8,851 bases of DNA, taken from a virus (lineage: Duplodnaviria > Heunggongvirae > Uroviricota > Caudoviricetes). How positions within the stretch are numbered: position 1 is the stretch's first letter; each line of letters starts with the position of its first letter. The stretch lies in IMG/VR virus record IMGVR_UViG_2778261667_000005, positions 1 through 8,851 of that record, one strand, 5' to 3'. Below are positions 1-8,851 of this stretch, piece after piece. Under the pieces are notes generated by a model that saw only the letters and a list, made by a program, of their open reading frames with translations, was not told the origin of the DNA and did no database searches. The translations under genes were made by a program, and so were the position numbers.

Positions 1-1
1 G

Positions 2-214
2 GATAAATCGCATAAGGAAACTTGTGAAGTATTCAGCAAACAACCGCCGAGAACCCTCGCCCAATGCGGGCGGGGAGCAGTCACGAAAGCGCCTGGTGGC
101 GGCAGTCATCAGAAAGTGAGCCTGAACGGAAAGCGGTCGGTTTTCCCGGATCACGGTTCAAAGGAAATGCCTGAACCGCTACGCAAGAAAATAATGAGGG
201 ACCTGGGGCTTTAA
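2..214 (+). CDS. hicA: HicA-family toxin (mRNA interferase), 5' end truncated by window edge
   Basis: Frame 2 is open from the first base with no start codon in the window and ends at TAA 212-214. The translated C-terminus ...APGGGSHQKVSLNGKRSVFPDHGSKEMPEPLRKKIMRDLGL has the HicA pattern (GSH, conserved basic patch, P-x-H, C-terminal LGL) and resembles E. coli HicA as I recall it. It is followed 30 nt later by hicB. Not in the ORF track because the start lies outside the window. Confidence 0.7.
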   Translation, partial: DKSHKETCEVFSKQPPRTLAQCGRGAVTKAPGGGSHQKVSLNGKRSVFPDHGSKEMPEPLRKKIMRDLGL

Positions 215-244
215 GCCCCTGCCTTTTTCAATAGGAGTTTCTCT

Positions 245-676
245 ATGTTTAACTATCCAGTAAAACTGGAGCGCGACGACGAAACCGGTGCGTATGTCGT
301 ATCATGCCGCGACCTGCCTTTGTTTAATTCCGTGGGTGACTCAGTTGAAGAAGCCTTGCTTGAGGCTGGTTATGGATTGGTTGCAGCGGTTGCGATTGAG
401 ATTAAAGAACGGCGACCTGTGCCCACTGGTAGCAAGCCAAAAGAAGGAGAGTATGTTGTCTCCCTGCCAGTACTACCAGCAATGAAGGCTGCACTCCACA
501 ACGCGATGATAGAAACTGGTACACGTAAAGCAGAGTTGGCGCGCAAACTCAGAAAAAATGGAACACAGATTGATCGGCTTCTCGACGTCGAACACTCATC
601 AAAAGTTGAAACTGTCGAGCTTGCGCTGCATCAACTGAATAAAAATATCGCTGTATCTGTAACTTCCATGCGGTGA
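245..676 (+). CDS. hicB: HicB-family antitoxin (HicB fold plus C-terminal DNA-binding domain)
   Basis: 143 aa ORF with SD AGGAG at 233-237, 7 nt before ATG 245. N-terminal MFNYPVKLERDDETGAYVVSCRDLP... matches the HicB N-terminal fold pattern; the C-terminal third (...TGTRKAELARKLRKNGTQIDRLL...) looks like a small HTH/RHH DNA-binding module. Sits directly downstream of hicA in the canonical toxin-antitoxin order. Confidence 0.8.
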   Translation: MFNYPVKLERDDETGAYVVSCRDLPLFNSVGDSVEEALLEAGYGLVAAVAIEIKERRPVPTGSKPKEGEYVVSLPVLPAMKAALHNAMIETGTRKAELARKLRKNGTQIDRLLDVEHSSKVETVELALHQLNKNIAVSVTSMR

Positions 677-713
677 CTTCTTTCTTATCGTGCAACACCC
701 CCCCATGAAAGGC

Positions 714-741
714 TTTAACGATGTCACCGCTTCAATATAAA
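714..741 (+). promoter_or_regulatory. Candidate sigma70 promoter for the 99 aa gene (TTTAAC - 16 nt - TATAAA)
   Basis: -35-like TTTAAC at 714-719, 16 nt spacer, -10-like TATAAA at 736-741, about 20 nt upstream of ATG 763. Motif match by eye only. Confidence 0.25.
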
Positions 742-762
742 AAGTTTTAATCGAGGAAAGAT

Positions 763-1062
763 ATGACCAGCATAGAAACGAAACACCTTTGGAATTTGCT
801 CCCTAAGTTTAAAAGCAATAAAGTCCTTCATGCATCAAAAATCAAAAATATCGAGATTATCTCATCGATTGGTAATACCCCTATTTGTGGCTATATCACA
901 TTAATGGAACCCCAAGGCGTAACAGTTCGTGTTGATGCAGCGTTTTTGCAAAAACACCGGCCAGATACTGGCGGCTATCTGCTCGGTTATGAGGACGGTT
1001 ATCTGTCCTATTTGCCGGAAGAACCATTTGAAGATATTTTCAAATATATTGCCGACGCGTGA
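763..1062 (+). CDS. Hypothetical 99 aa protein with acidic C-terminus; no family recognised
   Basis: ORF with SD GAGG at 753-756. Product MTSIETKHLWNLLPKF...YLPEEPFEDIFKYIADA. AT-richer than its neighbours by eye (roughly 40% GC). Followed by an intrinsic terminator. Confidence 0.65.
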   Translation: MTSIETKHLWNLLPKFKSNKVLHASKIKNIEIISSIGNTPICGYITLMEPQGVTVRVDAAFLQKHRPDTGGYLLGYEDGYLSYLPEEPFEDIFKYIADA

Positions 1063-1102
1063 CAAAATACCTTTGTTTTGTTCTTCCTTTGCCTTGATTC
1101 AC

Positions 1103-1136
1103 CGCAAACTCTTCCCGTTTCGCAGTTTGCTTTTTG
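1103..1136 (+). terminator. Rho-independent terminator for the plus-strand hicAB/orf99 unit
   Basis: Stem GCAAACT (1104-1110) pairs with AGTTTGC (1124-1130) around a 13 nt loop, followed by TTTTT (1131-1135). On the minus strand the A-run precedes the stem, so this is plus-strand specific. Confidence 0.45.
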
Positions 1137-1149
1137 AGGCGAACATTCC

Positions 1150-1178
1150 CGCCCGCCACCAAAGCGGGCGTCGGTTTG
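1150..1178 (+). terminator. Second GC-rich stem-loop (possible tandem or backup terminator)
   Basis: CGCCCGC (1150-1156) pairs with GCGGGCG (1164-1170) around a 7 nt loop, followed by tcggTTTgtg. Lies between the convergent orf99 and the 461 aa gene. Confidence 0.3.
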
Positions 1179-1189
1179 TGGGGCATGAT

Positions 1190-2575
1190 TCATTTTTCTA
1201 GGGGAACAGTTACCCGTTTTGTCGGGCTTTCAAACATAACAAAGTTAAGCCCTTTCCCCTCACCATATTCCTGTTCAATCTCATCAGAAACGGCGGTTAA
1301 AATATTACGCAGATCGACATCTCCACCACCGAACATATCGCCAAGCGCCTGTTGTTTATGAATCAGCTCGTCGTTGATTTTTTGTGCCATTTTTTTGAAT
1401 GCTGCCCCCATACGCTTCGCGCTACGATTATTTGCTACGATGAATAGCGCCAACGCCTCCGCTTCCGGCGTGCTGTCGCCAAATAACCCCCTTTGGGCGA
1501 TCACTTCTTCAACGGCCTGACCATTGTCTTTGGCTTCACGAACAAGATTGATTGCTTCCTGGAGTGCCGCAATTGCCTGTGTATCCAGACCATTAACTTG
1601 CTCTATACCGTCCACTAAACCAGTTACGGCGCCATGGTGAACGTCGCCAGACAGCGACTGCATTTGCGCAAAATCGCTGGCAGCCGTATTTAATGCGGTA
1701 AGTATATTGCGCATTTCCGGATCCGGTTCTTCCGCGACAAACCGAACAAGCCTTTCATCCTTGTACGCTTTGGCAAAAATTGCATTCTGGATGCGATCGA
1801 TAAGCTGTTTCGTTGGGCGCCCATCGGCAGTAAGCAAACCTGCCGTCGCTGTATCGCCTATTTCGCGCAAAAACGCACGAATAAACGCATCATTAGACCG
1901 TGCCAGCAGATTTCCATCATCTGAAGGATTAAATAGCGCCATGACGCTCTCAGTGAGAAATTGCGCATCCGCATACGCTTTTTCACTTGCTGCCATCTCT
2001 TGCAGATCGCTAATGTTTGAATCGCGGGCAAATTGAGCGCGGTCTACATCTGTGAGTCTTTCTCGCACCAGTACGGGCATAGACATTTGCGAAATTTCGT
2101 CAGGATTCAGACCAAACTCTTTCGCATGGTCGATCAAGTACTGACGATACTCATCCGCCTGTCCTTGCTCATAGGCACGCCAGATCCCCATACTCCTTCC
2201 GTTGCCGGATTCAACAACGTTGTCCGGACCAACTATCGGCGCTCCGTGGCTGCTCATACCGGAATCCGTTAATTGTGCCGGGCGTAAAGTGGAGGCAATG
2301 CGGTTAACCTGAAGTTTACTGGATAGACGTGTGCGATCACGTGGCTGGAGTTCTTCCGGGAAGGCCGGGTTAATCGTACCGTCAAGGTTATTCGAAATGA
2401 TTAGGCTACTGGCATCAACAACCTTAAAAGCTGTCTTTACCTCTGCGCCTTTGCTGGTGACTACGTAGCTACTTCGTCCCAGGCGAGTTTCTTTCCTCTC
2501 TAATGAAGAAACCAGAGCAATGATGCTGTTAATGTCTGCGGCCTCGGAAAGCGCAGAAGTAACTGACTTGTTCAC
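1190..2575 (-). CDS. ParB/Srx-like domain protein (461 aa); terminal gene of the Dar-like operon (P1 ddrB position), function unknown
   Basis: Long ORF starting at GTG 2575 with SD AGGGGGAG 6 nt upstream. Residues about 50-135 (KVVDASSLIISNN...EELQPRDRTRLSSKLQVNRIAS...GAPIVGPDNVVESGNGRSMGIW) follow the ParB N-terminal domain layout (beta strand, QPR box, helix, G-x-x-R box) with SGNGRS in place of the canonical GERRxRA. QPRDR is encoded at 2333-2347. Confidence 0.6.
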   Translation of the reverse strand: MNKSVTSALSEAADINSIIALVSSLERKETRLGRSSYVVTSKGAEVKTAFKVVDASSLIISNNLDGTINPAFPEELQPRDRTRLSSKLQVNRIASTLRPAQLTDSGMSSHGAPIVGPDNVVESGNGRSMGIWRAYEQGQADEYRQYLIDHAKEFGLNPDEISQMSMPVLVRERLTDVDRAQFARDSNISDLQEMAASEKAYADAQFLTESVMALFNPSDDGNLLARSNDAFIRAFLREIGDTATAGLLTADGRPTKQLIDRIQNAIFAKAYKDERLVRFVAEEPDPEMRNILTALNTAASDFAQMQSLSGDVHHGAVTGLVDGIEQVNGLDTQAIAALQEAINLVREAKDNGQAVEEVIAQRGLFGDSTPEAEALALFIVANNRSAKRMGAAFKKMAQKINDELIHKQQALGDMFGGGDVDLRNILTAVSDEIEQEYGEGKGLNFVMFESPTKRVTVPLEK

Positions 2576-2644
2576 AATACACTCCCCCTATAGAGAAAGC
2601 TGGAAGTGTAAAAAGTGTGTGATTTATGGAGGCACAAGTAAGTG

Positions 2645-2666
2645 AAAGGGGCATTTCAACCCCTTT
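2645..2666. terminator. 7 bp stem-loop in the 94 nt gap between the 122 aa and 461 aa genes (possible attenuator)
   Basis: AAAGGGG (2645-2651) pairs with CCCCTTT (2660-2666) around an 8 nt loop. The T tract is partly inside the stem, so this is weak as a terminator. Confidence 0.25.
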
Positions 2667-2669
2667 TGA

Positions 2670-3038
2670 TTACCCGGCATAACCGTTGGCTTTCACCCAA
2701 CTTATGGTCTTCTCTTTAGCCTGCTCCAACGTCAGGAACTCGCCTACATAGTTTGAGAGTCCACGCAGCACATCAATAAACTCCATTTGCGTGGACTTTG
2801 TGAATTCCCCTCTAAGGAAGTCAGTCACTATCTTAGGAACTTCATCTACAACAGGAGCAGTCTGTTGTTGCAGCTCCGCTGCCGGTTGCGCGGCAGTCCC
2901 CAGTCCCAATTTCAGCATCACATCAACAATCTGCTTACCAATGGTGACGCGTTGCAATACTGGCGCGATTTTCTGCGCCTGCATTAGATCTGATAGCTCT
3001 TTACCTAATTTCAGGCGGTCTAAAACAGAGATAGTCAT
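2670..3038 (-). CDS. Small 122 aa protein, Dar-like operon member (P1 ddrA position, tentative)
   Basis: ATG at 3038-3036 overlaps the stop of the upstream 650 aa gene (TAATG). SD GGGAGG lies 7 nt upstream. No motif recognised; the call is by position and size only. Confidence 0.5.
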   Translation of the reverse strand: MTISVLDRLKLGKELSDLMQAQKIAPVLQRVTIGKQIVDVMLKLGLGTAAQPAAELQQQTAPVVDEVPKIVTDFLRGEFTKSTQMEFIDVLRGLSNYVGEFLTLEQAKEKTISWVKANGYAG

Positions 3039-4990
3039 TAAGCACCTCCCTGCTGAATTTCAGCCAGAATGTTGATCAGGTAGTCAACTGCTGCACCCAC
3101 AGTGGCTTCGTTCTCGTCGTATCGACCTGCACTGATAAGAGCGTTTGCAGCTTCCTGCACATGGTCAAGTTCGGCACTGATTACCGTCAGATCGCGGGAT
3201 GTAAACTGCACCGGGACGGATTTAAGGTACTCCAACGCTTTATCTGCTTCCTGATCAGCTTCAGTTGCCGCTTCTCCAGCGTCTTCCGGCGTTGGCTGTT
3301 GCTCTGGTTCTGTTTGTGGGTGTGATTCTGGCTCAACTACAGGTGCTAATTCAGGCTCTGGCGTTGCTTCGTTTGAATGATTTTGAAGGGCGTTATATAC
3401 GTCCATAATGAAAAGGTTCTCCCCATCACCAAGCGGATAAGCCACGTTCGGAAACTCTTTGCGGAAAAGAATTTTCACTTGCGCCTTGAATGTTTTCAGG
3501 TCACTGCCAAACAGGTCTACATAACCATCAATATGTTTCGACATGCTGGACGCAACCAATTGGCCTGCAAAATCTTTCAGCTCATCTTCATCAGGAAGAT
3601 AGAGCAACTCGTACTGGCTGACTTCTTCATCTGTCAGTTTACGGTCATACGTAATGATACCGTGACGTGCATATTCGTAATACTGATCAGCCTGGTCAGG
3701 ACGTCCAAATACGGCTTTATTTCCTTCCGGTACAGTACCTACACCAGCCGGACGAGACTGGAGTGCATAGCGGTATTTGCCAACATCTTCAAGGCTAGAT
3801 TGATAAAGCGCATGGCGATATTTGCTAACATTCTGTGTTGCCTGGCTGTTATTCTGATAACGGTTCAGATCCTGTGGCAACACATCCACCTTGTATTGTT
3901 CAGCTTTATGTCCGCGATAGGCTTTTAGCAATTTAGTGGCCGCATCTGCAAGAGTACCACCTTTAACAGTGCTGGTATCAATACAGTAGTTACCTTCAGG
4001 CGCTGAGATCGTAACATAGGTTTCAGCGCCTGACGTGACATAGTTAACCACCGCGCCGTTATCCAGTGTAGTTTTACCGCCAGTTGCGAGATTGTGTTTT
4101 ACGTGTCGAAGTTGGTCGCTGAACGCTCGTTCTTTCGTTTTTTCACCTTTAGCAGACAACAATTTATCGCGTTTTGCTTGTAATTCCTCGTTGATGGCTT
4201 TCTGGGCATCAAGTTTTTTTTGCATCTCCGTAAGAGCAGCACGCTTTTCAGTCAGACCACGTTGAGCTACTTCCACCTGATCAATCATTATTGACCGTTG
4301 TTCTGCTAGTTTATCTGCTTCATTGAGATAACTCTCAATATCTGCCTTCATTTTGTCCTGGCGCTCTTTTGCTTTCTTAAATTTTTCGCTGTTACGCTCA
4401 ATCAAATTAGATAGCGCCTGGCATACCTGGCTTAAAGAAACATCTCTCCCACCAATCGGGGCGACAACGTGAGTTACGTTACGCTTATTAAGTAAAAACT
4501 GAAATGCAACCAGTTCATCATTACCCTTGATTTTCGCGCCATCGGCGGTTGGAGAGTGGAAAATGATGCTTGTGCTTTGCCCATCAGTCAGTGGTATCTG
4601 TGCTGTTAAAACAGGAATATTAGCTACGCGACGAACACGCCCGATAATTGCTCCGCCAATACAATTCCGACCATTTTCATCCGCCCCTGCTTCATCAGTT
4701 CCGGCTGATATATTCGTTCCATTCAGGCCACGATTTAGCGCGCGCACGAAAGCCCGCATTGTTTGTGCAAGCCTGATTCTGGTCGTTGTGATGGCCTCAA
4801 ACATAGCTTCGTCGGACACAACAAGAATTTCATTGCCCATATAGGCAAGCTCGATATCTTCTAATGTAGCCGCTTCAAAAATCAGATCGTCTTCACTTAA
4901 ATCCTCCGAAGACCAGCGGCTTGGGGTATAACCAGGAATCGTATCAGCGAAAGTAGATTGAATATTGATCCGTATGGGATTCTTAATCAT
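3038..4990 (-). CDS. DarA-like large protein (650 aa), putative virion-packaged anti-restriction/head morphogenesis component (tentative)
   Basis: ATG at 4990-4988 overlaps the upstream stop (ATGA). N-terminal globular part, a K/E/A/Q-rich predicted coiled coil (residues about 198-292, nt about 4115-4399), and an acidic P/E-rich linker (nt 3239-3373). Size and operon position match P1 DarA as I recall it. The 205 aa upstream product repeats part of its architecture, as expected for Hdf (homolog of DarA fragment). Confidence 0.45.
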   Translation of the reverse strand: MIKNPIRINIQSTFADTIPGYTPSRWSSEDLSEDDLIFEAATLEDIELAYMGNEILVVSDEAMFEAITTTRIRLAQTMRAFVRALNRGLNGTNISAGTDEAGADENGRNCIGGAIIGRVRRVANIPVLTAQIPLTDGQSTSIIFHSPTADGAKIKGNDELVAFQFLLNKRNVTHVVAPIGGRDVSLSQVCQALSNLIERNSEKFKKAKERQDKMKADIESYLNEADKLAEQRSIMIDQVEVAQRGLTEKRAALTEMQKKLDAQKAINEELQAKRDKLLSAKGEKTKERAFSDQLRHVKHNLATGGKTTLDNGAVVNYVTSGAETYVTISAPEGNYCIDTSTVKGGTLADAATKLLKAYRGHKAEQYKVDVLPQDLNRYQNNSQATQNVSKYRHALYQSSLEDVGKYRYALQSRPAGVGTVPEGNKAVFGRPDQADQYYEYARHGIITYDRKLTDEEVSQYELLYLPDEDELKDFAGQLVASSMSKHIDGYVDLFGSDLKTFKAQVKILFRKEFPNVAYPLGDGENLFIMDVYNALQNHSNEATPEPELAPVVEPESHPQTEPEQQPTPEDAGEAATEADQEADKALEYLKSVPVQFTSRDLTVISAELDHVQEAANALISAGRYDENEATVGAAVDYLINILAEIQQGGA

Positions 4991-5604
4991 GCTTCATCCT
5001 CCAGTCGCGCGATTTCTTCTTTAAGCGCACGCGTCTTAGCTTGTTCCTGAGACAAGGCCGCTTTAACGTTATCCGCATCTTGCATTGCCTTGTCTGACTT
5101 GCTTTGGATCTTAGCCAGTTTGTCGTTAGCATTAGCGATATCTTCACGGAGTGCATCACGTGATTCTTTCGCTTCAGCTAATTTCTGAGCGTTAGATTTA
5201 ACTCCCTCCCGCTTCTTATTTCCGTCATCAATATTTTTTGCTACACGAGCAAGTTTTCGAGCTAATGACTTCTGGAAAGAAGTTGCTCCGCGATTAAATA
5301 AAGCCGCGAGAGACTGCCCCAAAGCCGCCATTGTTTTTACTGGCTTGAACGGTACTGTTTTACCATTCAGTTTTATCCCAGATATATCACCGGTATCGTT
5401 AACCTGGACTTCCATTGTCTGTTCATCAATACCAACAAGGGTAAACGTGCGCGTCATAATCCCATCTTTCTTCCTGCCATTACTAGCAGGGATCACCCTC
5501 GCTATCTTGTAACCACCTTTACTGATTTCTTTGACGAGTTTTGCCAGCCCCTTTTCGTTTAACTCATCATAATTAAGAAGAACATAATTAGTCTTATTTG
5601 ACAT
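4987..5604 (-). CDS. Hdf-like protein (about 205 aa): globular domain plus coiled coil paralogous to the middle of the 650 aa protein (tentative)
   Basis: I place the start at ATG 5604-5602, which has a near-perfect SD AAGGAG 6 nt upstream, rather than the GTG at 5619 used by the ORF track (no SD). Stop TGA at 4989-4987 overlaps the next start. Pattern IKLNGKTVPF...ALGQSLAALFNR + coiled coil parallels KIKGNDELVAF...SQVCQALSNLIER + coiled coil in the 650 aa protein. Confidence 0.45.
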   Translation of the reverse strand: MSNKTNYVLLNYDELNEKGLAKLVKEISKGGYKIARVIPASNGRKKDGIMTRTFTLVGIDEQTMEVQVNDTGDISGIKLNGKTVPFKPVKTMAALGQSLAALFNRGATSFQKSLARKLARVAKNIDDGNKKREGVKSNAQKLAEAKESRDALREDIANANDKLAKIQSKSDKAMQDADNVKAALSQEQAKTRALKEEIARLEDEA

Positions 5605-6040
5605 TCCAGTCTCCTTCACGCTTTTCGATCGTAAACTGGCGCTCTATGCTGTCATTGATAGGGAAAATGCGATAAAGCGGATTTAGTCGGCAGTTACCGT
5701 TTGTCAATGTGACTTTCAGATCCCACTTCGTTGGCTCAAGATATTTCGTATCGATGAGCAAATACTCTTCTCTCTCACCGCGTTTTGAAGCGTCAACTGG
5801 TCGCGTTTTCCCTGAAATAACCACCGATGGATTTTTCAGGTCTTGCAACCAATATTCGATTTGAGCGTTGCTCACCCAGCTTCGCTTAACACGTAGCGAA
5901 ACAGGAAATGCTATAGCGGATTCTTTCACTACAGCGTCACCAATACTCAAAATCTCAACGCTCTTGCGGCGAAATAAGAAACGGTCAACGACGGCAACAA
6001 ATGCCATGATAAAAATGAAATAATTTCCAAAGTTACCCAT
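5594..6040 (-). CDS. Membrane-anchored 148 aa protein (one N-terminal TM helix); LydB-like putative holin antagonist/lysis regulator (tentative)
   Basis: ATG at 6040-6038 overlaps the stop of the upstream holin-like gene (TAATG). SD GGTGGAG. N-terminal hydrophobic stretch YFIFIMAFVAVVDRFLF followed by a soluble domain. Confidence 0.4.
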   Translation of the reverse strand: MGNFGNYFIFIMAFVAVVDRFLFRRKSVEILSIGDAVVKESAIAFPVSLRVKRSWVSNAQIEYWLQDLKNPSVVISGKTRPVDASKRGEREEYLLIDTKYLEPTKWDLKVTLTNGNCRLNPLYRIFPINDSIERQFTIEKREGDWNVK

Positions 6041-6366
6041 TATTTCTCTCCACCTTTTCCCCCACTCATAATTACGCTTATGAGATTCAAGACATTGCCA
6101 GCTCTGGACTTCAAGCCTTGCAAGATTTCGCTTCCGTTGTTACTGGTAATCAGAACAACGCAGAAAATGATACCTTCAGGCCATTCTTGGCTAACCGCCA
6201 CTCCATACCCCGCAAGCCCGGCTGTTACCGCAGTAAACAATTCACTCGCAAGATTGAGCAGGGACGCAGAAATGCGCCCGTCTCTAACTCCGAGAAGGAA
6301 TACGCCGGTTCCACTTAGTAGGGATGTTATGACTACTACAGCCAGATTTTCATAATCTGCAAACAT
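6040..6366 (-). CDS. Holin-like small membrane protein (108 aa, three predicted TM helices, charged C-terminus); LydA-like
   Basis: ATG 6366-6364 with GGAGG upstream. Hydrophobic segments LAVVVITSLLSGTGVFLLGV, LLNLASELFTAVTAGLAGYGVAV and GIIFCVVLITS, with C-terminal GGKGGEK. First gene of the coupled operon. Confidence 0.5.
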   Translation of the reverse strand: MFADYENLAVVVITSLLSGTGVFLLGVRDGRISASLLNLASELFTAVTAGLAGYGVAVSQEWPEGIIFCVVLITSNNGSEILQGLKSRAGNVLNLISVIMSGGKGGEK

Positions 6367-6444
6367 ACCCCTCCAGAAATAACATCTAATGCGCCACTAA
6401 CTTAGTCAGTTTGTTATTTCTTTACAGAACATCTTGTGACAGCT

Positions 6445-6464
6445 CCCCGCCCTGTCGGGCGGGG
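6445..6464. other. Perfect 8 bp GC stem-loop (CCCCGCCC tgtc GGGCGGGG) without a U tract, in the intergenic region upstream of the holin-like gene
   Basis: Read directly from the sequence. Sits about 80-100 nt upstream of the minus-strand operon start. Neither strand has a T-run after it. Confidence 0.5.
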
Positions 6465-6530
6465 CTTCCCACTTCTTAGTCCGCACCGTCTGTATGACGG
6501 ATTCTGGCCTTTTTACGATTTGTGCTTCCC

Positions 6531-6562
6531 TTTTGTTTGCGGGATAGCGCTTTTTGTTTGCG
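6531..6562. repeat. 11 bp direct repeat TTTTGTTTGCG x2, spaced 21 bp (two helical turns)
   Basis: Copies at 6531-6541 and 6552-6562, in non-coding DNA upstream of the Dar-like operon. Candidate regulator binding sites. Confidence 0.45.
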
Positions 6563-6667
6563 TCGCAGATTTCGGCTGGCATTAACTTCCGGAGTCTCAC
6601 TGACTCCATCGACACCAGTACACCAATGGGCGCTTTTCCTTTCACGTAATGGGGGGCGCTGACAGAA

Positions 6668-6829
6668 ATGGAATGCGAGCTTATCGAAGCTGACAGCCTC
6701 TGGAACGCGCCGTCAGGCTGAATATGGCAACGGATGAGGAACACACGACTGGAGGAGTGGGAACGCTACAGCGTTCTGGTCAGTCGTGTGGAGCCTGCAA
6801 ATCCTGAATGGACAGATAAACCAGAGTAA
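6668..6829 (+). pseudogene. Decayed remnant of a second tail-fibre assembly (Tfa) gene, C-terminal part only, convergent with the intact tfa
   Basis: Plus-strand frame reads [58 protein letters not shown]. The last about 30 residues match the Tfa C-terminal motif (lambda Tfa ...[26 protein letters not shown]..., and the intact Tfa here ...LINWMKYVQQVEATDTS...). In-frame TGA at 6719-6721. No Tfa-like sequence in any frame further upstream. Confidence 0.5.
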
Positions 6830-6833
6830 AAAT

Positions 6834-6861
6834 TAAGGCCCAGCATCGGGCCTTTTATTAT
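6834..6861. terminator. Bidirectional Rho-independent terminator between the convergent tfa and Tfa remnant
   Basis: Stem AGGCCC (6836-6841) pairs with GGGCCT (6848-6853) around a 6 nt loop. Followed by TTTATTATT on the plus strand and preceded by AAAAATT (T5 on the minus strand). The stops of both flanking reading frames abut it. Confidence 0.65.
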
Positions 6862-7277
6862 TCAGGCTGTTCCGGGAATATTACTGGTAGCGTAGAAGTG
6901 TCAGTTGCCTCAACTTGCTGCACGTATTTCATCCAGTTTATCAGTTGTTGTCTATCTGAATCACTGATAATCCCCAATGAAAGCTGAGTTTGCCAAAACT
7001 GAGTTTTATCCCTGACAAACTGTAGCAAGGATTGTTTCTTCTTTTCCGCCAGATTAATCATTTCAGCTTCAGTCAGTGGCTCTGGTTCTGTTACAACAGG
7101 CTGACCATCTTCATTGGGATTTATTGTTTTCCCCTCTGATTGTTTGTCAAGAAGATAACGATACCGTTTTTCTGAAATGGAAATAGCATCATTAGGCCAT
7201 GACCCATTGCTGTCATAATCATCCTTTAAATTATCATCATAAAAACCATTAGTTGACGGGCTGTAATATATCGTCAT
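6858..7277 (-). CDS. tfa: Tail fibre assembly protein (Tfa/gpU-type chaperone)
   Basis: 139 aa. N-terminal MTIYYSPSTNGFYDD is the typical Tfa start; the C-terminal ...LINWMKYVQQVEATDTSTLP... matches the Tfa C-terminal motif. ATG lies 1 nt after the tail-fibre stop (TAATATG). Confidence 0.8.
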   Translation of the reverse strand: MTIYYSPSTNGFYDDNLKDDYDSNGSWPNDAISISEKRYRYLLDKQSEGKTINPNEDGQPVVTEPEPLTEAEMINLAEKKKQSLLQFVRDKTQFWQTQLSLGIISDSDRQQLINWMKYVQQVEATDTSTLPVIFPEQPE

Positions 7278-7278
7278 A

Positions 7279-8271
7279 TTAATAACCTATAGCTGTCCAG
7301 TACATATTACCATTCCCTTCGCTATTGAAGGTTGCTCCAGTTTTGGATAGAGAGTTAACCGCAATGCTGTAATCAAAACGCCCATGAGCATTGGTAATTG
7401 TTATATTGACGCAGGCAGATGGGAAAGCGATAGGGAAAGTTAATCCCGCGCCAGCATTAGAAATATATCCCCACTGTGTGATGAGTCCAGTTGAAACATC
7501 TTTATGCCAGCCATTAGCGGCTTTTGATACAGTATTTTTTGCTTGATAACGGGAATCAAAATTACCGTAATCTGATGGAGTCACCTGACCTGCGACATTA
7601 ACTGGCTTGTTACTCTGCAAAGTACCATTCTGAAAGCGGAATACATGCTGGCCATTTGCATAAACATCAAGCAGGCCGTCACCGTTCTGTTTAAAACCAG
7701 TATCATTATCGCCAAGAACGATAGAGTTACCGCCAAGAGCATTTGCAGTACCCAGACCAAGAGAACCATTAACCGTTAAACCGTTCCCAATAGTTACTCC
7801 ACCACTGGCATCGTTAATGGTAAGCGGCCTTAAACTATTCCATGTTCCCAGGCTGTCGCCCGAATTGGTCAACATGAAGTATGTGTTTGAACCATCGTTT
7901 CGGATAAAGAATCCATAGTTACCCTGTACGATGCGGAAGCCGTTTCCTGATTTGGAAACAATCTCGCCAGCAGCCGTTAAACCGCCGGTAAGAGTTCCTC
8001 CTGTTATTGGCAATGCACCAATATCTTCAGGCGTGAGGTTAATGTCTTTTGAACCATCAAACGAAACGGAATTAATCTTTCGCGCGGTTTTTAGTTTTGT
8101 GGCTGTTGAGGCGTTTCCGGACAGCTCACCAGAAATGCCACCAACAACTGTTAGATCACCAGTTATTGTGCCGCCTGAACTTTCCAGTTTTTTAGCAACA
8201 TCACTCTTAATAGAGTCGATTTCTTTTTTCAGATTAGTTATATCTGCTGGTATCGTTGTCACTGTTGCCAT
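7279..8271 (-). CDS. Tail fibre protein: stand-alone 330 aa distal (receptor-binding) segment of lambda Stf / side-tail-fibre type
   Basis: Own ATG with SD TAAGGA 8 nt upstream. Contains ...ATKLKTARKINSVSFDGSKDINLTPEDIGA... and ...GGNSIVLGDNDTGFKQNGDGLLDVYANGQHVFRFQNG...GNFDSRYQ..., which are characteristic of lambdoid/P2/Mu-family side tail fibre distal regions. Immediately followed by tfa. Confidence 0.75.
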   Translation of the reverse strand: MATVTTIPADITNLKKEIDSIKSDVAKKLESSGGTITGDLTVVGGISGELSGNASTATKLKTARKINSVSFDGSKDINLTPEDIGALPITGGTLTGGLTAAGEIVSKSGNGFRIVQGNYGFFIRNDGSNTYFMLTNSGDSLGTWNSLRPLTINDASGGVTIGNGLTVNGSLGLGTANALGGNSIVLGDNDTGFKQNGDGLLDVYANGQHVFRFQNGTLQSNKPVNVAGQVTPSDYGNFDSRYQAKNTVSKAANGWHKDVSTGLITQWGYISNAGAGLTFPIAFPSACVNITITNAHGRFDYSIAVNSLSKTGATFNSEGNGNMYWTAIGY

Positions 8272-8280
8272 ATTAATTCC

Positions 8281-8559
8281 TTACGCCCATTCCCGCAGCG
8301 GTTGTTCTAATTGAACTTCAAAACCATCAAACATTTGTTGTTTCAAACTGTCGTTTAAAATACGAACATTAACAAAGAAGCCATCATTTTTAATCACTGT
8401 TGGTTCTTCGTTCTCGCCGTTTGGTATTTCGGTATATGTAATACCTACAACATCAAGAAGGATGTTGTTTTGCAGTTCTTCATTATCGTGCCAGGATATA
8501 CTCTCTAAAAAAGAGTCGTATTCTGCCCTGTCTCTGAATTTCAACGTAATATCTTTCAT
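8281..8559 (-). CDS. Hypothetical 92 aa protein between a LamG-domain protein and the tail fibre (possible adaptor/linker)
   Basis: ATG overlaps the upstream stop (TAATG). In the same reading frame as the downstream fibre gene, separated by TAA plus 3 codons. No motif recognised. Confidence 0.5.
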   Translation of the reverse strand: MKDITLKFRDRAEYDSFLESISWHDNEELQNNILLDVVGITYTEIPNGENEEPTVIKNDGFFVNVRILNDSLKQQMFDGFEVQLEQPLREWA

Positions 8560-8851
8560 TAAATAACCTCAGCCATTTGTTGGTCTGTCAATTCTTTATG
8601 CCAAATGCGTAAATTTTTCACATGACCAAATAAATGACGTAACCCCGCTGTAGTCTGGCCTCCAATACGGATGGTTGCAGAGTTCTGAATATAGGACCAC
8701 GTAGTCTTTGTTTCGCTGGATATGCGCCCGTTACTTACTGAGCACGTAGACTGATCTGACTTTACACGCATCCCCATAACCATTTTTTCAAGCGATGCGT
8801 TTTCGTTTACCCGTCTGTTAGCTCCTCCAATATCGCAATAAGGAAATCCGT
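8559..8851 (-). CDS. C-terminal end of a larger protein with a LamG/concanavalin-like (Laminin_G_3-type) domain; probable tail/baseplate or receptor-binding protein. N-terminus outside window
   Basis: The minus-strand frame stays open to the window end (...GFPYCDIGGANRRVNENASLEKMVMGM...), so the M at 8783 used by the ORF track is internal. C-terminus ...ATIRIGGQTTAGLRHLFGHVKNLRIWHKELTDQQMAEVI matches the terminal beta-strand signature of LamG-like jelly-roll domains (F-G-h-h-D/N-h-R-I-W/Y-x-x-x-L-S/T-x-x-Q/E-h). Confidence 0.45.
   Translation of the reverse strand, partial: GFPYCDIGGANRRVNENASLEKMVMGMRVKSDQSTCSVSNGRISSETKTTWSYIQNSATIRIGGQTTAGLRHLFGHVKNLRIWHKELTDQQMAEVI

Follow-up and report, generated by a model that had tools for sequence, protein, structure and literature searches.

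A DdrB orthologue without the peptidase half at the end of a P1/D6-type lyd/dar operon

In this work we explored a stretch of 8,851 nucleotides (nt) of caudoviricete DNA, positions 1 to 8,851 of IMG/VR virus record IMGVR_UViG_2778261667_000005 (hereafter the window, always at its full length), and in particular a gene on its minus strand at positions 1190–2575. A preliminary description, made from the sequence alone, had seen there a 461-amino acid (aa) protein with a divergent ParB/Srx-like N-terminal domain, last in a Dar-like operon, and could not tell whether it was a true homologue of DdrB of phage P1. It is: window residues 4–450 align with residues 2–442 of P1 DdrB (YP_006491.1, 995 aa) at 64% identity over 447 residues, with 81% positives, and both proteins carry the same Pfam domain and occupy the same place in the operon, after ddrA. 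Given this similarity and the synteny, the window protein is a DdrB orthologue. In phage D6 its counterpart is orf25/gp102 (YP_009914702.1, 454 aa, annotated as "similar to P1 gene ddrB"), 96% identical over residues 1–452. We consider it likely that the window protein is the D6-lineage orthologue of P1 DdrB, encoded by the last gene of the late lyd/dar operon: a head-internal protein that depends on DarA and Hdf, aids the loading of DarB and is ejected with the DNA. The gene and its parts are the following.

1190–2575, minus strand: ddrB (short, D6-type), encoding the 461-aa DdrB core module; GTG start, stop codon included
2057–2452, minus strand: DdrB-like ParB/Srx domain, residues 42–173, Pfam PF18763
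2333–2347, minus strand: QPRDR motif, residues 77–81, 97–100% conserved in 126 diverse modules
2192–2212, minus strand: ESGNGRS motif, residues 122–128, at a predicted strand–helix junction; R127 invariant
1226–2050, minus strand: conserved domain, predicted all-helical, residues 176–450
1190–1225, minus strand: lineage-specific 11-residue tail (SPTKRVTVPLEK region) plus stop codon, where homology to D6 and to long DdrBs stops

The reading frame stands as first described. The GTG at 2575 is its sole in-frame start, since an in-frame stop at 2590 precedes it by 15 nt and the first 50 codons contain no further start codon, and a good ribosome binding site (Shine–Dalgarno GGGGGAG) lies 7 nt 5' of it. 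D6 ddrB starts with TTG; both start codons are weak. The product has a mass of about 50 kDa, contains no cysteine and is acidic, with an isoelectric point (pI) of 4.9 for the whole protein and of 4.6 for the helical domain. An antisense open reading frame (ORF) inside ddrB (1707–2036, plus strand, 109 aa) is 63% identical to P1 "IddB", an annotated gene internal to ddrB; this identity equals the conservation of the ddrB sense strand, and thus provides no evidence for a real gene.

Upstream of ddrB, the window holds the remainder of the operon.

2576–2669, minus strand: ddrA–ddrB spacer of 94 nt, with an 8-base pair (bp) hairpin at about 2663–2642 and the ddrB ribosome binding site
2670–3038, minus strand: ddrA, 122 aa; phrog_1855, DdrA-like (E=2.5e-47); D6 map
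3038–4990, minus strand: darA, 650 aa; Pfam DarA_N (E=9e-40) and DarA_C (E=1.4e-18)
4987–5619, minus strand: hdf, 210 aa; Pfam DarA_N (E=2.3e-18); D6 map
5594–6040, minus strand: lydB, 148 aa; PF16084 LydB; D6 map
6040–6366, minus strand: lydA, holin, 108 aa, with which the lyd/dar operon begins; D6 and P1 maps

The order lydA-lydB-hdf-darA-ddrA-ddrB, with ddrB last, is common to the window, D6 and P1, and together with the Pfam and phrog_1855 matches it bears out the operon position that had been proposed. Tail-fibre genes flank this late operon, and portal and protease genes are present on full contigs. Positions 1230–6685 match the DNA of Escherichia phage D6 at 92%, the homology ceasing at about 1230; judged by its sequence, the window comes from a P1/D6-like phage-plasmid. 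The same 461 aa, without a change, are encoded on 11 public contigs, of which two measure about 90 kb. On these two the neighbours are the same, and genes for a portal, a prohead protease and RepL are present, as is one for a DarB-type SNF2/helicase protein of 2279 aa. The junction at the 3' end of the window ddrB, which is unique to it, has no exact match in species-representative genomes, nor is it present in complete E. coli genomes. The DarB-like gene lies outside the window; the D6 DarB homologue shows 42% identity over 84% of the query.

The hairpin and the 94-nt gap reported ahead of ddrB are both real. The hairpin is formed by 8 bp, AAAGGGGU/GCCCCUUU, directly after the ddrA stop codon, and the 111-nt spacer region has a folding energy of -35.6 kcal/mol (z = -4.0 against shuffled sequences). 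Spacer and hairpin are kept in D6, whereas the P1 gap at the same place measures only 12 nt and lacks the hairpin. An intrinsic terminator was rejected, given that the T-run is absent and a terminator scan makes no call. The hairpin may instead serve in processing or stabilising the RNA, or act as a partial attenuator setting the ratio of DdrB to DdrA. We also dropped a candidate P1-type late promoter in the spacer, CACTTACTT-gtgc-CTCCAT, which by eye resembles P1 LPdar, AAGTTACTT-tgca-TACCAT: a late-promoter pattern search allowing two mismatches found no site in the spacer or 5' of lydA, and sites overall were no more frequent than expected by chance.

The N-terminal domain belongs to a named family. 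Pfam PF18763 (ddrB-ParB) matches residues 42–173 (E=2.2e-42) over profile positions 2–120 of 121, scoring 144.4 bits where 27.6 would suffice, a result which places the ParB-like layout first noted at residues ~50–135 far beyond chance. The DdrB-like ParB domain was defined with P1 DdrB as prototype; its hallmarks are a conserved Arg, a strand 2 that ends in an acidic or amide residue, and an additional helix bearing a conserved Tyr (Iyer, Burroughs, Anand, de Souza, Aravind 2017; PMC5512222). In a set of 126 diverse modules (37–80% identity) the Arg corresponds to R127, 100% conserved at the start of helix 125–136 and probably facing the pocket. D118 (98% conserved) is the lineage-specific Asp/Asn with which strand 2, as numbered in that description, ends, and the Tyr is Y143 (98%), which sits in an inserted helix, 141–149. 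Likewise, the putative pocket residues Q77, R79, D80, R81, E122, S123, N125 and R127 are 97–100% conserved. An AlphaFold2 model of the domain (mean predicted local distance difference test score, pLDDT, 87.5; predicted template modelling score, pTM, 0.84) displays the ParB/Srx core fold, made of four strands together with two helices that are conserved, the outcome on which the preliminary description had staked its fold assignment; relative to the superfamily, three short helices are added between helix 2 and the last strand. Its best structural matches are nucleotide binders and kinases, namely KorB, PadC, SbnI, Srx and SerK.

Both motifs singled out earlier are where they were said to be: the QPR box is intact within QPRDR, and the canonical GERRxRA box is replaced in ESGNGRS, Pfam ParBc giving no match at E<=1. 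In the predicted structure, QPRDR precedes helix 84–95, and ESGNGR lies at the junction of strand 120–123 and helix 125–136. ParB and Srx proteins carry GERRxRA or GCHR, respectively, at that strand–helix junction, and in ParB the QPR box likewise stands ahead of a helix. On this predicted topology it is reasonable to read ESGNGRS as the equivalent of GERRxRA, as first suggested, and of GCHR. A match of DSNISDL (residues 185–191) to the ENLQR box is no more than a guess. Relatedness to canonical proteins is not visible in sequence: phmmer and hmmsearch with the whole protein and the N-domain profile returned only chance matches among PDB sequences (E>0.3). The window DdrB differs from the canonical ParB/KorB/Noc cytidine triphosphatases in lacking a ParBc match, the GERRxRA box and sequence-profile similarity. 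Canonical ParB also possesses a helix-turn-helix (HTH) and a ParA partner, whereas the window DdrB matches no HTH family and the window holds no parA gene. Sulfiredoxin, in turn, relies on a catalytic Cys in GCHR; the window protein has none, which excludes Srx chemistry. Given that the pocket residues are invariant and that all close structural matches bind nucleotides, nucleotide binding or turnover emerges as the likeliest activity of this domain, and the ParB-like domain of DdrB probably binds, and turns over, a nucleotide.

The PF18763 model spans only the first third of the conserved DdrB module. The preliminary description recognised no motif in the remaining ~320 residues; we found, on the contrary, that residues 176–450 form a conserved domain, predicted to be all-helical with moderate confidence (residues 179–448). 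Of 1.84 billion cluster representatives, 2957 match this region at E<=1e-3 and 1019 do so at E<=1e-10, mostly as part of a protein of 600–4000 residues. N187, E198, D203, N228, R261, N290, Q361, R384 and S385 are invariant. The helical domain comes directly after the DdrB-ParB domain in 136 of 141 newly retrieved representatives, the gap between them having a median of 1 residue. Of the five exceptions, four start inside the helical domain, being fragments or 5'-truncated sequences, and the fifth (P0129, 1009 aa) has no detectable ParB domain. No Pfam or NCBIfam model covers the helical domain, and solved structures match it only as generic bundles, none specifically; nor does NCBIfam hold a model for DdrB, DdrA or a 99-aa ORF located downstream of ddrB. 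Judging from the fold and from domain fusions, the helical domain would be part of the nucleotide machine, or else a docking surface for DarA, DdrA or DarB.

The PF18763 domain is known from giant multi-effector proteins, whereas the window DdrB is a solo form; with the DdrB module as its single effector domain, it is not a polyvalent protein in the sense of Iyer et al. (2017), which calls for at least two. Fusion partners were counted in the 141 representatives by non-iterative phmmer, with Pfam confirmation on examples, because jackhmmer iterations seeded with the middle region of P1 DdrB spread to almost all sequences; in the non-iterative search that middle region is confined to P1-like DdrBs. 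A polyvalent-type inorganic pyrophosphatase (InPase) is fused to the module in 49 representatives, on either side, and the P1-type peptidase region (MPTase) in 17, always downstream. DarA_N precedes the module in the same polypeptide in 20, always upstream. The fusions with DarA_N agree with what is known from P1, where packaging depends on DarA, and those with InPase agree with nucleotide chemistry. InPase–DdrB fusions, among them P0054, P0131, P0132 and P0134, include the DdrB of Vibrio P1-like phage-plasmids, and one chain of 1828 aa joins DarA_N, InPase, DarA_C and the DdrB module.

What sets the window protein apart from P1 DdrB is the lack of the C-terminal half, some 550 residues long. 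It corresponds to the N-terminal 45% of P1 DdrB; P1 residues ~443–995, with a HELGH zincin-like peptidase motif at 872, have no counterpart. A tblastn search of the window for remnants of the P1-type C-terminal half found none, and no HExxH motif occurs in the window protein. Its close relatives have the full length; one of them, 75% identical to it (P0121, 970 aa), carries WHEAGHH. The last conserved block of DdrB is GEGKGLNFVMFE, and the window protein terminates 11 residues beyond it. In other short forms, such as those of D6, Pantoea and Leclercia, unrelated tails take over immediately behind this block or slightly further into long-form sequence. D6 orf25 shares the short architecture, spacer and hairpin with the window copy, yet has the C-terminal tail PTSVG in place of SPTKRVTVPLEK, and its downstream cargo differs. 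From these unrelated tails, and from the end of DNA homology at ~1230, we conclude that the C-terminal half has been lost repeatedly, where the conserved late operon borders on variable cargo. Elements of Pantoea, Leclercia, Vibrio and Photobacterium repeatedly carry solo forms of 440–480 aa, and 113 plasmids in PLSDB hold a ddrB copy at an identity of at least 90%. The gene is under strong purifying selection: against D6, the ratio of nonsynonymous to synonymous substitution rates (dN/dS) is 0.076 overall (dS 0.45), 0.062 in the ParB domain and 0.055 in the helical domain.

Downstream of ddrB, P1 carries hxr, whereas the window carries on the opposite strand a HicA/HicB toxin–antitoxin pair (2–214 and 245–676, both plus strand), immediately downstream. 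HicB (143 aa) matches Pfam HicB-like_2 (E=3e-12); hicA is cut at its 3' end by the window start, and at this position full contigs show a 60-aa HicA_toxin gene. D6 has DUF4145 and a hypothetical protein at this position, a difference which marks a variable-cargo spot beside the end of the dar operon. Between hicB and ddrB lies the 99-aa ORF (763–1062, plus strand), which matches phrog_11049 (E=2e-18) and phrog_872, both of unassigned function; it has no Pfam or NCBIfam match and is conserved in position on all four contigs examined. At the other end of the operon, a remnant of the cin DNA invertase (6578–6685, plus strand) consists of a 36-codon internal fragment, equivalent to D6 Cin residues 84–119 (81% identity). 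An intact 186-aa cin occupies the same position in D6 and on two other contigs with identical DdrB. The invertase inverts the tail-fibre C-segment; the window variant seems to be without it by loss, and its host-range fibre would then be fixed. The tail-fibre region (6858–8783, minus strand) is mosaic, with a 139-aa fibre assembly protein, a 330-aa C-terminal part of a fibre and small ORFs, and positions 8582–8851 match at 82–92% the tail-fibre genes of unrelated siphoviruses and Salmonella phages, not those of D6.

The physiological role can be approached through P1. There, DdrB is an abundant head protein (39 peptides) which "aids DarB addition to capsid" (PMC9024508), and proteins are incorporated in the order Hdf/DarA, then DdrA, DdrB, DarB and Ulx (PMC12810830). 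It is for P1, too, that entry of DdrB into the head is known to depend on DarA/Hdf, and that DarB loading and protection against EcoB/EcoK are known to require DdrB (PMC9024508, PMC12810830). P1 ddrB is dispensable for plaques on the standard laboratory host (PMC10695390). Transferred from these P1 genetics and proteomics, the window DdrB would enter the procapsid after Hdf/DarA and DdrA, would next assist DarB loading, and would leave the head with the DNA at ejection; the ejected Dar proteins would then shield the DNA in cis from Type I restriction. The ejected effector imagined in the preliminary description is the published view of DdrB. In P1, HELGH was read as the mark of a self-processing metallopeptidase, and the N-terminal, ParB-bearing fragment was predicted to be packaged (PMC5512222). 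The short DdrB may correspond to that fragment; without the peptidase half, it would need no self-cleavage.

Several observations weigh against this interpretation. Packaging, ejection and the DarB-loading role are all carried over by analogy from P1, whose protein is twice as long, and nucleotide binding and catalysis are, for DdrB-ParB domains in general, predictions. The equivalence of the motifs with those of ParB rests on predicted topology, and when a module profile built from 127 sequences was aligned by hhalign to a canonical ParB profile of three (Spo0J 6sdk, M. xanthus 7bnk and T. thermophilus 1vz0), the probability was ~1% or less and the register wrong, which does not establish it. 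The full-length model is moderate (pLDDT 74.9, pTM 0.50) and does not fix the arrangement of the two domains. The acidity of the helical domain is at odds with DNA binding in the manner of the HTH of ParB, and the 94-nt gap with its hairpin might uncouple ddrB expression from that of darA and ddrA.

Other roles have thus to be weighed. DdrB could be a purely structural adaptor, a catalytically dead ParB-like scaffold bridging DarA/DdrA to DarB in the head, as would suit the fact that failure of DarB loading is the sole P1 DdrB phenotype reported (PMC9024508), the DarA_N–DdrB fusions in 20 of 141 relatives and the missing canonical GERR box. Yet the near-absolute conservation of small polar pocket residues across modules ~40% identical is hard to explain without ligand binding, the pocket is also kept in polyvalent proteins with no DarA_N detected in the same polypeptide, and the recurrent fusion to InPase (49/141) points to nucleotide chemistry; we regard a pure adaptor as unlikely. 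A ParB-like DNase or nickase that, once ejected, would cleave the DNA of the host or of rivals, or would nick that of the phage itself to help early replication, is among the options raised by Iyer et al. (PMC5512222), who themselves favour sensing or degradation of nucleoside triphosphates. Such an enzyme fits poorly with structural matches led by the nucleotide binders and kinases KorB, PadC, SbnI, Srx and SerK, with an acidic protein of pI 4.9 and with the lack of a plaque phenotype upon loss of P1 ddrB on the standard laboratory host (PMC10695390), and it seems to us distinctly improbable.

Two further readings are effectively excluded. A length less than half that of P1 DdrB, the unrelated tails of the short forms and the scoring of ddrB as "missing" in nearly all D6-group elements by a 2025 survey (bioRxiv 10.1101/2025.09.12.675607) might suggest a truncated, functionless remnant heading for loss in this lineage. 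The frame is intact, however, every family invariant is kept and the break falls exactly at the module boundary; with a dN/dS of 0.076 against D6 at dS 0.45, at least 90% identical copies on 113 PLSDB plasmids and solo forms of 440–480 aa recurring in elements from four genera, decay is highly improbable. Finally, the ParB/Srx fold and the location on a plasmid prophage might recall the partition ParB of a phage-plasmid. A protein without a ParBc match or recognisable HTH, with no ParA adjoining, encoded in a late lysis/Dar operon and with relatives embedded in polyvalent proteins of the virion has next to no chance of being one.

On a bolder view, the DdrB core is a single two-domain nucleotide-processing machine, in which the helical domain completes or gates the pocket and the reaction releases pyrophosphate, as hinted by the InPase fusions in about a third of the relatives; the transfer of a nucleotidyl group to DNA, or to a component of host restriction, may serve as an example of such a reaction. 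We hold this idea to be speculative and attach little probability to it. If it were true, DdrB would be an enzymatic anti-restriction effector itself rather than an aid to DarB loading, and the naturally protease-free 50-kDa protein of D6 type would lend itself ideally to a demonstration.

As for our preferred reading, an orthologue of the head protein DdrB, a DdrB with a divergent ParB/Srx domain in the Dar operon is already known, from a named Pfam family, the 2017 paper and the annotated D6 orthologue. Three aspects are modestly new. The helical domain, obligately coupled to the ParB-like domain, is unannotated; it makes up about two thirds of the DdrB core and, in the absence of a family model, is missed by annotation pipelines. 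Moreover, a minimal DdrB without the protease has been kept by selection in the D6 lineage. Finally, the "missing" calls of the 2025 survey in the D6 group may be an artefact of this short form, not true absence. That a short form persists under selection speaks for the N-terminal module as the functional core of DdrB, and offers a simpler protein for nucleotide-binding and structural work.

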